Part shown: positions 2,520 to 61,887 of the stretch, in pieces
Layout: every line of letters begins with the position of its first letter
Position numbering within the stretch: position 1 is the stretch's first letter
Sequence record: MK373782.1
DNA length: 64,000 nucleotides
Reading direction: 5' to 3' (one strand)
From: Escherichia phage vB_EcoM_KAW3E185
The notes under the pieces: model-generated
Database searches by the model: none
What the model saw: the letters and a program-made list of their open reading frames with translations, nothing else
Told to the model about the DNA's origin: nothing
Program-made: the position numbers and the translations under genes

Positions 2520-3620
2520 TTACGCTGTGAAGATTTTATCCCACATCGCAACAACTGCATCTCGGTTATACTTCTTCCATACTGCTTCAGCACGTTTAAC
2601 TCGAGCTTCGTATGTGTCAGTGAATTCTAATACAGCTTTTGTGTAAAGCGCAACTACTTCTTTCTTAGGAGTAGAGGAATCAATTTCTACACGCACAGTA
2701 TCTGGGTCGTATTCAAATGTCGCATGAGGATAATCCTTAAAAACTAACTGGATTACAGGGACACCTTTAGAGATGGCTTCAATAGAACTATTCTCTACCG
2801 TACCTGTGTCAGGACACGTATTAATAAGTGCTTTAGCTGTTTTAAGGCGTTCCATGATTTCACTGTGTGGAGCATCAATAATAACAGGATATTTAGCCGG
2901 TGGTGCCCATTTGCTTGGACAGTATCCTACACCATTTTCGCCTAGTGCTTTAATCGCTTCAAGAGCAACATCAGTACGACGCATTTTAGTGTCATAACGT
3001 TGTGCACTAATAATCAGATCAGTCGCCGGAAGAACTTCAGGTTTCTCATTCAAACAAATAACCGGATAATCTTCGGTTTCAAACAACGGATTTGCTCGCC
3101 AATAATCATAATCAATTTTGTCAGTCAGACCTGAAGTCATATAACAATATTTGCGTTCAAATTCACGGAAGGCTTTAGTAGGAGCATAACTCTTACCACC
3201 GTTCTTACGAATTTGAATAGTCTGGTCCCAAATTTGAACAATGCCACGAGATACTGGTTCAAATGGTGTTGCCATAAAATTCTTATGAACTTTAGAGAGA
3301 CCTGCGTCTTTAATTGCCTGAACGGTTAGTTTAGTCGGTTCCATAGTAACAACAAAATCGTATTCATGGATGCCGGCTAGTTCAACAATCTTACGAGCCA
3401 TAGTATAACTCATACCTAGACTGAATTTAGTCAGATGACCAACAGGATGATGATTAACCTTCCAATCACCAAATGTGTCATTATCAAAACCGATATAATC
3501 AATATCGGCACCGATGGACACAAGATATTTCAACACATTTAAATGTACTGCTTCAAGACCACCTTGTACACGTTCTGGGTTAAATGGGACTGCACGAGAT
3601 GGGATAAACATAACTTTCAT
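2520..3620 (-). CDS. putative GT-B fold (GT4-like) glycosyltransferase, 366 aa
   Basis: N-terminal MKVMFIPSRAVPF...GGLEAVHLNVLKYL and C-terminal ...TGTVENSSIEAISKGVPVI resemble GT4 donor-binding motifs; occupies the slot where T4 has gene 60/mobA. Confidence 0.5.
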   Translation of the reverse strand: MKVMFIPSRAVPFNPERVQGGLEAVHLNVLKYLVSIGADIDYIGFDNDTFGDWKVNHHPVGHLTKFSLGMSYTMARKIVELAGIHEYDFVVTMEPTKLTVQAIKDAGLSKVHKNFMATPFEPVSRGIVQIWDQTIQIRKNGGKSYAPTKAFREFERKYCYMTSGLTDKIDYDYWRANPLFETEDYPVICLNEKPEVLPATDLIISAQRYDTKMRRTDVALEAIKALGENGVGYCPSKWAPPAKYPVIIDAPHSEIMERLKTAKALINTCPDTGTVENSSIEAISKGVPVIQLVFKDYPHATFEYDPDTVRVEIDSSTPKKEVVALYTKAVLEFTDTYEARVKRAEAVWKKYNRDAVVAMWDKIFTA

Positions 3621-15038: not shown

Positions 15039-15275
15039 TTAACCACTTACTGGTGTAGGGGTAAACATTGCAGCGTTCTTAGTTTTCCAGTCAGCTGCAT
15101 CAGAAACTACAGTAGAATAAGCTGCCTTTTCTGATGGAAAGATTTGGTAATGAGAATCTGCAATCCGATGTTCGTTTGAATAAATCTCAAACGGCACAGA
15201 AACTTCCATACCTTTAACTTCTTTACCTTCACCAGCAGGATGCGTAAAGGTTTTGATGTTTACATAACCACCCAT
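15039..15275 (-). CDS. soc: small outer capsid protein Soc (78 aa)
   Basis: GYVNIKTF...HYQIFPSEKAAYSTV matches T4 Soc as I recall it; late promoter upstream. Confidence 0.8.
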   Translation of the reverse strand: MGGYVNIKTFTHPAGEGKEVKGMEVSVPFEIYSNEHRIADSHYQIFPSEKAAYSTVVSDAADWKTKNAAMFTPTPVSG

Positions 15276-15277
15276 AA

Positions 15278-15616
15278 TTAACTCCTTTGTTGTTTAATTA
15301 CAGGTGTATTTATAATGAATTTCTTCGGGGCAATAAAATATCCGAATTTAGCTAATATAACAACATCACCGTTAATTATTACCGGAGAATAATCATCTGG
15401 AGTATTAAATTTCCAGTGGAGTCTAGTATTATATCCATCAGAGCCGAATGCTTTATTAGCCGGTCTCCCGGCTTTTTGCCATGCATAAAAATCAAGTTTC
15501 ATTCGCAACCTAATCAACCATATGTAGATGGTCTGATAATTGACTAACATGCTGAAGCTGATTAGACAGGAGCTTACAAATAAGCTCACTGTTATCATTT
15601 TTAAATAGTTGGTCAA
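15278..15616 (-). CDS. hypothetical protein with hydrophobic N-terminus (112 aa)
   Basis: ORF between soc and gene 56; start uncertain. Confidence 0.4.
   Translation of the reverse strand: MTNYLKMITVSLFVSSCLISFSMLVNYQTIYIWLIRLRMKLDFYAWQKAGRPANKAFGSDGYNTRLHWKFNTPDDYSPVIINGDVVILAKFGYFIAPKKFIINTPVIKQQRS
15307..15314 (-). promoter_or_regulatory. T4-type late promoter TATAAATA for soc
   Basis: Exact TATAAATA on minus strand about 30 nt upstream of the soc ATG. Confidence 0.6.
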
Positions 15617-15664
15617 TACGTTTCTTATGAGCTTTCTTAAGCTGACGTTTATTTAAACGAGCCA

Positions 15665-16186
15665 TTAATAACCTCGGTCTTGACGAGCAAAGTTTTCAGC
15701 ATTCTTCAGATAATACAGTTTAAAGATTTCTTCAGCAGAAAGACCCAGACCTTGGAACATGTTCAGAACGAAGTGCAGAATATCAATCATTTCGAATTTA
15801 ATTTCGAGCTGGTCTTCAGGAGACAGTTCATCAATACGACGATTACGATATTCAGCATGTTGTGCTTTCCATGGCTTCCACACAGAGCTGGCAGCTTTTT
15901 CACCGTTGGACATACCACCAAGTGAAGTCAGCAGTTCACGGAATTCATCATCAATATAATCTTTCTGATTACGCAGCCAATCAACAACATCGCCAGCAGT
16001 AGCCAATTCATCAGGATGTTTGTTATGTTCAGGCTTGTCATTTGCCAGACGAACCTGTAAAGATTTCTGCATATCAAGCATTACCTGCAGTGGGTCTTTA
16101 TCTTCGTGAATCAGAGCATTAAAATAAGCTTCTTCTGCTTTATCAACACCAGAAATAAGTTGTGAACATTCGTTAAAGTGTGCCAT
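15665..16186 (-). CDS. 56: dCTP pyrophosphatase (MazG-like), gp56
   Basis: MAHFNEC...DPLQVMLDMQ...LYYLKNAENFARQDRGY matches T4 gp56 as I recall it; start chosen at Met6. Confidence 0.85.
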   Translation of the reverse strand: MAHFNECSQLISGVDKAEEAYFNALIHEDKDPLQVMLDMQKSLQVRLANDKPEHNKHPDELATAGDVVDWLRNQKDYIDDEFRELLTSLGGMSNGEKAASSVWKPWKAQHAEYRNRRIDELSPEDQLEIKFEMIDILHFVLNMFQGLGLSAEEIFKLYYLKNAENFARQDRGY

Positions 16187-16274
16187 TATTTTTCCTTTCA
16201 ATTCAGTATAAGAGAGTTAATTCTAACATTAATTTTATAAAGCGTAATAAATAATAGGTAACTAAGGAGATATT

Positions 16275-16472
16275 ATGTTTAAACTTCCATCGTTAATCAA
16301 CGCTATTAAAGGCAATAAAAAGAAAACTGCTATCGCCGCAATAGTTGTAGGTGGCATTATTTCATGGAACTTCGGGATTGCACCATTGTTAGTTGCCCAT
16401 GGTATTATAGTTCCTTCTGTTCCATTGGATACTGTAGTTGATTTGGCCTTTGCTATTATAGGACTTGTTTAA
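16275..16472 (+). CDS. small two-helix hydrophobic peptide (65 aa), only plus-strand gene candidate
   Basis: AAGGAGA Shine-Dalgarno 4-5 nt before ATG; sits in the 56-61 intergenic region; 3' end overlaps the primase stop. Confidence 0.4.
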   Translation: MFKLPSLINAIKGNKKKTAIAAIVVGGIISWNFGIAPLLVAHGIIVPSVPLDTVVDLAFAIIGLV

Positions 16473-17491
16473 ATCTTCGAATAACGAGATAATCTCATTT
16501 TAGCATGCAACCCACTTGAAATATTCTGTTTCATATATTCTAAAATTTCTTGTGGTGTTGCATTTTCTTTCATTACCATATCATTCACATCCTTTGAACT
16601 CCATGGAGCTCTATCCCAGAACATGACACGTTCGCCTGCATCAACTAATCGCTTCATGCGAGCTATAGTATCCGGATGCCTAGGTTCATTATCCATTACC
16701 CATACCCGACGTTCTTTAAATGGTACCACATCTAAATCTATCGAGCCGCCTGTAATAGCGATTGCATTGGGTATGAATAAACTATCAATAGGGCCTTCCA
16801 TTACCCAGACGTCTCCTTCCTTAACACGTTCAACGCCATAAATTTTTGTTGCAGACTCAAACGCTTTAATAGTGATATATTTCTGAGGAGCATCTTTACG
16901 AAGTGCACGTCCTTGGAATGACTCGGCCTTCCCATCTTTATTAAAAATAGGAATCACTAAACGTGGTTCGGGGATCTCTTTCTTATACGTACCAGGTTGA
17001 ATCTTGTTGACCAATTTGGGCCATTCTAATGTGAACCATAATCTGTTCCATGATTCTTTAGGAATGCATCTAGACTTAACATATTTAACAATAGGATGCT
17101 CTTCAGGCAACTTGTCCAGACGAGAACAAGACGGCAAAGAATTTATAGTCTTTTTCTCCGGTTCTGGTTTATGTTCAGGAACCTTTTCAATCTTTGGTTC
17201 CATTCTAGCTTTTTCTTTACGGACTTCCATTAGATATTCGCGATAAAGCTCTTCATCATACTCTTTTAAGTATCCGGAAATTGTATTGTGGTATTGACAG
17301 TTATAGCAATGTACATTACCAGGAGTACCGCCATAATACCAACCGCGAGCTTTCATTGCATCTGTCTGAGAGTCGCCACAAACTGGACAACGAAACGTTA
17401 ATTTAAATGTGCTTGAATTATTGATTTGTCTAAAACGAGGGAGGTGAGAAAACGCACGATAAGCAAATTCATTATCTATCCATTCAGCCAT
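16469..17491 (-). CDS. 61: DNA primase gp61 (340 aa)
   Basis: N-terminal zinc ribbon CPVCGD...CYNC; size and position as T4 gp61. Confidence 0.85.
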   Translation of the reverse strand: MAEWIDNEFAYRAFSHLPRFRQINNSSTFKLTFRCPVCGDSQTDAMKARGWYYGGTPGNVHCYNCQYHNTISGYLKEYDEELYREYLMEVRKEKARMEPKIEKVPEHKPEPEKKTINSLPSCSRLDKLPEEHPIVKYVKSRCIPKESWNRLWFTLEWPKLVNKIQPGTYKKEIPEPRLVIPIFNKDGKAESFQGRALRKDAPQKYITIKAFESATKIYGVERVKEGDVWVMEGPIDSLFIPNAIAITGGSIDLDVVPFKERRVWVMDNEPRHPDTIARMKRLVDAGERVMFWDRAPWSSKDVNDMVMKENATPQEILEYMKQNISSGLHAKMRLSRYSKI

Positions 17492-17530
17492 AGTATTCTC
17501 CAGAGGCCTTAAATTAATAAGGCCATCTTA

Positions 17531-17998
17531 TCACAACTTATTAATATTTACTTTAATTCGCTTTCTTTTCTTGGAAGGAATTTGTTCGGGACCTTTATTT
17601 ACGACTGCACCTGTAGTTGTTCCTGATGCAATAGCTTGAGGATTGCCGTCTGAATCACCAGCAACCATATCCTCAAATAAAGGGAGTTCTTTAAATATTT
17701 CTTTCTGTTGTTCTTCCGTAATGTTATAGCGTGAAGCTACAGCACTCCAGGCAGACATCATTGAGGCCATTCCATTAAGACCTGGAACAGTGTTCATCAT
17801 TCGCTTCATTGAACGAACTGAAGCATGAAAAGGTGTATAAGCCGCTTTCTCTTCAGGAGTGGAAGGACGTTTAAGAACACTTCCACGTTCATCGATGATT
17901 TTGGCTTCGTATGCTTTCCATTCGGTAAAAGGTTTTTGCATTAGTCGAATAAACTTATATGCGTAAACAGAATCTATTGCAGTGTTAATAATACCCAT
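17531..17998 (-). CDS. hypothetical protein (about 155 aa)
   Basis: Track ORF 17531-18025; start chosen at Met10 with AGGAGG Shine-Dalgarno. Confidence 0.5.
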   Translation of the reverse strand: MGIINTAIDSVYAYKFIRLMQKPFTEWKAYEAKIIDERGSVLKRPSTPEEKAAYTPFHASVRSMKRMMNTVPGLNGMASMMSAWSAVASRYNITEEQQKEIFKELPLFEDMVAGDSDGNPQAIASGTTTGAVVNKGPEQIPSKKRKRIKVNINKL

Positions 17999-61525: not shown

Positions 61526-61887
61526 TATAGACTCTCAGTAAAGGTGCGAGCGATAACGTCGCGCTGCTGTTCCGGAGTCAGGGAGTTAAAGCGAACTGCA
61601 TAACCAGATACACGGATGGTCAGCTGCGGATATTTTTCTGGATGCTTAACTGCATCTTCTAGAGTTTCACGACGCAGAACGTTAACGTTCAGATGTTGAC
61701 CACCTTCAATTTTAACTTTAGGGTAATGTTCAATTTCAATTTCACGGGCATGCAAACCGTAGAAAATTTCCGGGTCTACAATAGCGTCTTCTTTAAAAGT
61801 CTTAGAGACAATAATCCGGGCTTGAGTACCGTCTTCAAAATAAATAGTGCCTTTGTGTGTGCCTTCAAGAATTTGATATGCTTTCAT
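61525..61887 (-). CDS. GrcA/YfiD-like autonomous glycyl-radical cofactor protein (120 aa)
   Basis: C-terminal ...[59 protein letters not shown], i.e. the PFL-type glycyl radical motif RVSGYAV. Confidence 0.8.

Follow-up and report, generated by a model that had tools for sequence, protein, structure and literature searches.

A conserved plus-strand gene between genes 56 and 61 of an RB69-like phage, with a candidate late promoter and a predicted inner-membrane product

Results

Organisation of the locus and identity of the ORF

We analysed a stretch of 64,000 nucleotides from Escherichia phage vB_EcoM_KAW3E185 (MK373782.1), referred to as the window. Over the 2 kb around the feature described here, the window shares 99.0% identity with Escherichia phage vB_Eco_NicPhage and 96.8% with RB69 (Mosigvirus, Tevenvirinae), and by these comparisons it is an RB69-like Mosigvirus. 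An open reading frame (ORF) on the plus strand lies between genes 56 and 61, diverging from the former and converging on the latter (Table 1). A preliminary description of this DNA had placed a 65-codon plus-strand ORF directly behind an AAGGAGA Shine-Dalgarno sequence in the 56-61 intergenic region; the coordinates are correct, with a spacing of 4 nt, and the identity of both flanking genes was confirmed by PHROG matches and synteny with RB69. The 3' end of the ORF had been described as overlapping the gene 61 stop, and the shared TTAA is indeed seen; the identical 4-nt overlap occurs in RB69, T4, CkP1, QL01, CF1 and Clarke_MM3. The same description had singled the ORF out as the sole plus-strand gene of the 64 kb. 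The RB69 annotation agrees with this, since among the 125 CDS of the equivalent 64.2 kb the ORF alone is on the plus strand and the rest are on the minus strand. The 65-residue product reads MFKLPSLINAIKGNKKKTAIAAIVVGGIISWNFGIAPLLVAHGIIVPSVPLDTVVDLAFAIIGLV.

Table 1 Features of the 56-61 locus (window coordinates).
Feature	Position	Strand	Details
Gene 56, dCTPase, divergent neighbour	15665..16186	-	PHROG match and RB69 synteny
Predicted MotA-dependent gene 56 middle promoter	16212..16252	-	Mot box GCTTTA 16243-16238, -10 TAGAAT 16225-16220
Octamer AATAAATA, T4 late-promoter class, putative promoter	16246..16253	+	A(-13) variant, 21 nt before ATG
Predicted late transcription start	16259	+	6 nt past octamer; 16-nt leader; from motif position -13 to -6 (PMC1524935)
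Shine-Dalgarno AAGGAGA	16264-16270	+	4 nt (TATT), then ATG
ORF CDS	16275..16472	+	65 aa plus stop, ATG start; RB69ORF029w / T4T dam.1 / PHROG 2024
Predicted single TM helix, codons 18-41	16326..16397	+	Invariant W31, N32, P37; AlphaFold2 and TMHMM
Predicted periplasmic tail, codons 42-65	16398..16469	+	HG...P...P loop, short helix 51-62
TTAA stop overlap	16469..16472		ORF TAA 16470-16472 (+), gene 61 stop TAA 16469-16471 (-)
Gene 61, DNA primase, convergent neighbour	16469..17491	-	PHROG match and RB69 synteny

The gene is already on record as a hypothetical protein. In the RB69 RefSeq entry it is annotated as RB69ORF029w (hypothetical protein NP_861719), which differs from the window protein at one residue, and RB69ORF029w is listed among the novel RB69 ORFs by Nolan et al. 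2006 (PMC1524935). The window protein matches the PHROG 2024 profile (unknown function) with an E-value of 1.9e-27, residues 1-65 aligning to positions 1-65 of the 65 in the profile, and the other seven genus-level forms match with E-values of 1e-22 to 1e-28. The T4 homologue is a protein of 66 residues, 54% identical to that of the window, encoded at the same place and likewise convergent on gene 61. It is named dam.1 in the T4T record (HM137666; protein ADJ39749) and corresponds to T4 17738-17938 (+) in NC_000866 coordinates. In the T4 reference records NC_000866 and AF158101, as in the 1984 record X01416, the 310-bp gap between dam and 61 carries no annotation. RB69ORF029w, T4T dam.1 and PHROG 2024 are thus the same gene as the ORF, with no difference of substance.

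Conservation and coding selection

Using tblastn, the window form of the protein matched 692 phage records, the T4 form 698 and the Karamvirus form 934. Conservation of the ORF and its ribosome-binding site in relatives had been proposed as a check, a frame broken in closely related genomes being the outcome that would speak against a gene. Both elements are kept across the sampled Tevenvirinae genera: the match to the window form is unbroken over at least 80% of the protein in 685 of the 692 records, and a Shine-Dalgarno sequence, AGGAGG or AAGGAG, is present in 8/8 genus-level forms. We read the annotated context in 13 distinct phages, covering seven named Tevenvirinae genera (Mosigvirus, Tequatrovirus, Gaprivervirus, Karamvirus, Jiaodavirus, Dhakavirus and Moonvirus) together with one more Klebsiella phage and one Yersinia phage, neither with a genus in its record. 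In all 13 the ORF is on the strand opposite all its neighbours, next to the 3' end of the primase gene and convergent on it. The upstream neighbour varies: it may be gene 56 or dam, but also small hypothetical genes or a hypothetical gene of 1.5 kb that has a methyltransferase gene on its far side. In Yersinia phage vB_YenM_P8 the ORF and the primase gene are separated by a homing endonuclease gene (locus 2780-3547), and both are intact.

In the two frame-broken cases inspected, the cause is a small indel. ERS-1, a record flagged as unverified, has a 2-nt insertion, and T4_ev240 has lost 1 nt from an A-run in an otherwise complete ORF. If real, these frameshifts show that the gene can be lost; T4_ev240 is poor evidence for dispensability, because the ORF is complete apart from this single nucleotide.

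When 1.84 billion cluster representatives were searched exhaustively with a profile, T-even-type clusters alone were returned, plus one false positive. The latter, P0039 (1822 aa, highly repetitive; E 2e-18), was rejected as a relative, its match being compositional and due to 7 repeated hydrophobic stretches. Word-indexed homologue searches reach close relatives only, and a locus search of IMG/VR with the single protein gave 2 loci. In RB49 (Krischvirus, outside the Tevenvirinae), genes 56 and 61 are 14 bp apart with no such ORF between them. From these searches the gene appears to be confined to the Tevenvirinae.

At the base composition of this DNA, approximately 6.8% of random codons are expected to be stops, and a given frame at a given site would stay open for 65 codons with a probability of ~0.01; all the genera sampled have this frame open. 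Comparisons between genera give a pS of 0.6-0.8, with synonymous sites near saturation, versus a pN of ~0.35, and dN/dS is ~0.2-0.4. The differences between the window and T4 number 32, 13 and 44 at the first, second and third codon positions, respectively. Two separate deletions in the hydrophobic segment, one in a20/P0004 and one in P0032, each remove three codons in frame. The ORF protein is less conserved between the window and T4 than gp61, which is 74% identical. At the RNA level, a search of Rfam gave no family match, and folding compared with shuffled controls revealed nothing unusual (z -0.41).

Predicted structure and topology of the product

An AlphaFold2 model computed with a 20-sequence alignment has a mean pLDDT of 82, and consists of a short helix (residues 3-11), a long helix (15-41), a loop (42-50) and a further helix (51-62). 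TMHMM gives one transmembrane segment at 21-41 and no signal peptide (Nolan 2006 supplement, PMC1524935). The first 20 residues have a net charge of +5, whereas the last 25 are hydrophobic, contain no basic residue and have a net charge of -2. By the positive-inside rule, these charges would put the N-terminus in the cytoplasm and the tail in the periplasm, and the product is probably an N-in/C-out single-pass inner-membrane protein. Besides the initiator Met, six residues are invariant across the eight genera: W31, N32, P37, G43, P47 and G63. All six fall within the outer half of the helix or the tail, whereas the cytoplasmic end varies freely. This pattern, as read from the alignment, suggests an interaction at the periplasmic face of the inner membrane.

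Two glycine-rich hydrophobic helices had been proposed from the DNA alone. The two stretches quoted for them (AIAAIVVGGIISW and IAPLLVAHG...) belong to the one helix 15-41; a second helix does exist in the model, but it is the short one at 51-62. The term glycine-rich does not hold for the family, as only the Mosigvirus form has the Gly-Gly pair.

No homologue of known function was found in any of the family, structure or profile searches. Scans of the eight forms against Pfam and NCBIfam gave no informative family match, and no match to a holin family even at E-values up to 10, while four diverse forms gave no match to PADLOC defence models at E-values up to 1. A profile search of the PDB returned noise only (best E 0.19), and a fold search with the AlphaFold2 model against viral structures found family members only. 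Searched with the family HMM, the window's ORFs of 30 aa or more, 950 in total, yielded only the ORF itself, with no paralogue and no relative of Imm or Sp.

Promoter motifs upstream of the ORF

The T4 late promoter consensus is TATAAATA, at positions -13 to -6, and no -35 element is needed. A motif-anchored scan found exactly one NATAAATA or ATTAAATA located 15-22 nt before the ATG in 10/10 upstream regions. The octamer is AATAAATA in the window, Jiaodavirus, Dhakavirus and T4_ev240, GATAAATA in T4 and ERS-1, CATAAATA in Gaprivervirus and ATTAAATA in Karamvirus and Moonvirus, while Klebsiella phage Clarke_MM3 has a perfect TATAAATA upstream of the ORF. In T4 it occupies 17,709-17,716 (NC_000866 coordinates), ahead of the ATG at 17,738, which would put a late start at about 17,722. 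The surroundings of the octamer are otherwise not conserved between genera. In ERS-1, where the upstream neighbour is unlike that of T4, similarity to T4 starts at the octamer.

The variant with A at -13 is accepted as a late promoter in both T4 and RB69 (PMC2988020, PMC1524935). The T4 late sites listed number 50, of which 32 match the consensus perfectly and 9 carry A at -13, making this the commonest variant; two are multi-base exceptions, one of them a TA-to-AT change (PMC2988020). In RB69 and its relatives, T at -13 is poorly conserved (Nolan et al., PMC1524935). It nevertheless counts against a late promoter that the first-base T of the consensus is absent in 9/10 of the regions scanned, and the promoter may be weak. 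The list of 31 RB69 late sites in Nolan et al. 2006 gives none at the ORF (PMC1524935). Taken alone, the RB69-type octamer could also be explained otherwise, because the gene 56 middle promoter has an A/T-rich upstream edge with which it overlaps.

Within the window, TATAAATA occurs 3 times against an expected 7.2, and VATAAATA 4 times against an expected 21.8 ± 4.4 (dinucleotide shuffles). This strong depletion suggests that stray late promoters, one-off variants included, are selected against in this early region. On the plus strand of the whole 64 kb, NATAAATA is found only twice, once upstream of the ORF and once at 61839. The second site, a AATAAATA, was dismissed because it is contained in a gene of the minus strand and is followed by neither an ORF nor a Shine-Dalgarno sequence. 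No sigma-70-like promoter was found on the plus strand upstream of the ORF. In T4, early and middle transcripts all run counterclockwise, whereas late transcripts run both ways (Geiduschek and Kassavetis, PMC2988020); by this rule the clockwise ORF is compatible only with late transcription. Together, the octamers in 10/10 regions, the depletion, the orientation rule and the lack of a sigma-70-like promoter make late, gp55-dependent transcription the most likely mode of expression, with a predicted start near 16259 and a 16-nt leader. A literature search found no transcript, ribosome-profiling or proteomic support for the ORF, no T4 ribosome-profiling or small-protein study, and no paper naming RB69ORF029w, NP_861719 or dam.1.

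The predicted middle promoter of gene 56 is the equivalent of RB69 Pm:16038, which has a score of 21.6 (Nolan 2006 supplement; window-minus-RB69 offset 214). Its 5' edge overlaps the plus-strand octamer, and the two predicted promoters stand back to back, pointing apart. According to the T4 oriA feature note, the primer RNA is the transcript for genes 56, segF and 59, and the promoter at 16212-16252 is likely to be the RB69-type counterpart of the T4 oriA promoter. The earlier placement of the locus in the oriA neighbourhood is therefore reasonable, and concerns the 88-bp gap with the gene 56 middle promoter, separate from the ORF. A sigma-70-like match (TTGATT, 17 nt, CATAAT) is also present at 16272-16300 (-), its -10 element being the reverse complement of the ATTATG start region of the ORF; going by its agreement with the consensus, it could be an early promoter directed towards gene 56.

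A perfect TATAAATA is located at 15307-15314 (-), 31 nt upstream of soc (15039..15275, -). It matches RB69 Pl:15279 of the Nolan 2006 list, and by position and motif would be the expected late promoter of this capsid decoration gene. T4 late genes embedded in early regions, of which soc is an example, resemble the ORF in being short genes with an octamer near the start, set amid early and middle genes. However, soc, a minus-strand gene, specifies a soluble protein that decorates the capsid, whereas the plus-strand ORF codes for a predicted membrane protein and has the A(-13) variant. Between soc and gene 56 (15276-15664) the window is ~155 bp longer than RB69, the window-to-RB69 offset being +59 at soc and +214 at gene 56. 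Two minus-strand ORFs (15278..15616 and 15510..15665) are found here, where related phages annotate a hypothetical protein or 'soc.2'.

The ORF 3' end and gene 61

No terminator-like site was found between 15900 and 17700 on either strand. Given this and the overlapping stops, a late plus-strand transcript would run antisense into gene 61. Other members of the family are arranged differently. Gaprivervirus has an AT-rich hairpin and ~120 bp between the ORF and gene 61, and the homing endonuclease gene of Yersinia phage P8 occupies the same interval. In Klebsiella phage PKO111 (Jiaodavirus), just after position 2150, a GC-rich hairpin (AAGGGGC-UUCG-GCCCCUU) follows the ORF stop and precedes the primase gene; its C(UUCG)G places a stable UUCG loop on the ORF strand, and the hairpin looks like a dedicated 3' end for the ORF mRNA. 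These arrangements in PKO111, Gaprivervirus and P8 indicate that read-through into the primase gene is not a conserved feature.

Discussion

The ORF is a genuine gene, conserved in T-even-type phages, and we consider it probable that it is expressed late under gp55 and encodes an inner-membrane protein of N-in/C-out topology, which possibly tunes an envelope event. Early in infection, the region would be read leftward only and serve as a spacer between genes 61 and 56. Once replication has started, RNA polymerase carrying the late sigma factor gp55 (with gp33 and the gp45 clamp) would initiate at AATAAATA, about position 16259, giving an mRNA with a short leader and a strong Shine-Dalgarno sequence. 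Translation would yield the 65-residue protein, which would insert into the inner membrane through one transmembrane helix (approximately residues 18-41), its basic N-terminus remaining in the cytoplasm and its 24-residue acidic and hydrophobic tail facing the periplasm. Late in infection, the protein would most likely bind another membrane or periplasmic component, as the outer half of the helix and the tail hold the invariant residues. The dN/dS of 0.2-0.4 amounts to relaxed constraint and counts against this explanation. That the ORF encodes a small membrane peptide, one of the two options left by the preliminary description, is strongly supported by the conservation of ORF and ribosome-binding site and by the coding-type substitutions. 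The other option was a chance ORF in a promoter or origin region; on that reading the DNA would be conserved for the promoters of gene 56 or dam, for oriA or for the end of the gene 61 transcript.

The 88-bp upstream gap with its strong predicted gene 56 middle promoter, the tie between T4 oriA and the gene 56 transcript, and the fact that the gene was never called in the T4 reference annotation or the 1984 T4 record could all be taken to suggest such a chance ORF. However, all genera sampled have the frame open, with saturation at synonymous sites and sparing of second codon positions, the indels keep the frame, and the invariant residues fit a coherent helix-loop-helix model. The ORF is moreover retained where the upstream neighbour has changed or a homing endonuclease gene separates it from gene 61, and neither Rfam nor RNA folding gives a signal at the RNA level. 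A chance ORF is very unlikely on these comparative grounds, and can be regarded as excluded for practical purposes. Selection on the amino-acid sequence speaks in addition against a late antisense RNA as the main product, which would shut down primase expression late in infection and leave the peptide secondary. The overlapping stops and the lack of a terminator-like site at 15900-17700 would suit this reading, as would the transcription of both T4 strands at different times at several sites (PMC2988020), but the hairpin behind the ORF stop in PKO111, the hairpin and spacer in Gaprivervirus and the homing endonuclease gene in P8 do not, and we regard a primarily antisense function as quite improbable. 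Any effect of antisense RNA on primase may be local and incidental.

Other readings accept the peptide and differ in what it does. Homologues are called 'holin' or 'putative transmembrane protein' in a few records that give no evidence, 'holin family protein' being the EAWsc9 annotation and 'Holin' the UniProt name of the OE5505 homologue. A holin or pinholin-like lysis protein, which would make holes in the inner membrane, could well be a small predicted membrane protein with a probable late promoter, and the invariant N32 inside the transmembrane helix could drive oligomerisation. Like holins and antiholins such as T4 T, RI and lambda S, the product would be a small, late-made inner-membrane protein, and its predicted topology resembles the N-in/C-out single-pass topology of T4 T. 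Holins typically end in a charged, hydrophilic C-terminal tail; here, a transmembrane helix is predicted, but the last 25 residues are hydrophobic with a net charge of -2. The ORF protein also has no sequence or profile similarity to T4 T, RI or lambda S, and lacks a large periplasmic domain and a lysis cassette, its neighbours being the dCTPase and primase genes. None of the 8 forms matches a curated Pfam or NCBIfam holin family at E-values up to 10, and the names are submitter labels with no cited test. T-even phages already possess the holin T with the antiholins RI and RIII, and rI is annotated in RB69. A holin is accordingly a very doubtful identification, and the holin-like and toxin-like analogies drawn initially find no holin, toxin or defence family match and face a hydrophobic, acidic C-terminus. 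Less doubtful, though still unlikely, is a membrane peptide of superinfection-exclusion, anti-defence or toxin-like type, whose targets would be incoming phages or host systems and not the phage's own lysis or assembly. T-even phages have several small envelope proteins of this kind, two of which, Imm and Sp, are encoded 2-3 kb from the ORF; the conserved part of the protein is predicted to face the periplasm; and confinement to one subfamily is often seen for accessory host-interaction genes. However, Imm and Sp are made early from counterclockwise genes, whereas the ORF has the opposite orientation and would be readable only by late clockwise transcription. This orientation, together with the late-promoter motif, argues against an early, Imm/Sp-like form of the superinfection-exclusion role suggested at first; the ORF also has no sequence similarity to Imm or Sp, and the family profile finds no paralogue in the window. 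An anti-defence role gains no PADLOC match. As for type I toxins of the Hok, Ldr and TisB kind, the hydrophobic peptide is present, but there is no Rfam match to an sRNA or toxin leader, no unusual RNA structure and no antisense-RNA partner to be seen; leftward early read-through would be antisense to the ORF, but it is not a dedicated sRNA.

For the favoured reading of a late inner-membrane protein, any statement on function is conjecture that goes beyond the predicted expression and topology. A role in the envelope or in lysis as an accessory factor, in lysis timing, lysis inhibition or membrane-attached assembly, is a guess that we put forward tentatively and hold to be rather less than an even chance. 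More specific versions are unlikely: an unstudied late inner-membrane component that is an extra player in lysis timing or inhibition and binds the periplasm-proximal parts of T, RI or the spanins, or one with a dual role, its late transcript also silencing the primase mRNA by antisense pairing.

What is added here to the existing records is the consistent late-promoter motif and the omission of the gene from the standard T4 annotation. The late-promoter inference is new but modest, and neither the motif nor the omission is likely to surprise specialists much. As things stand, this is an ordinary conserved hypothetical gene, for which we provide a case that it is real, late and single-pass. 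T4 is among the best-annotated viruses, yet its reference records NC_000866 and AF158101 omit the gene, and omics work that uses the reference T4 annotation is blind to dam.1. If the product is truly a late membrane protein acting on lysis or the envelope, it would add a component to a classic system.
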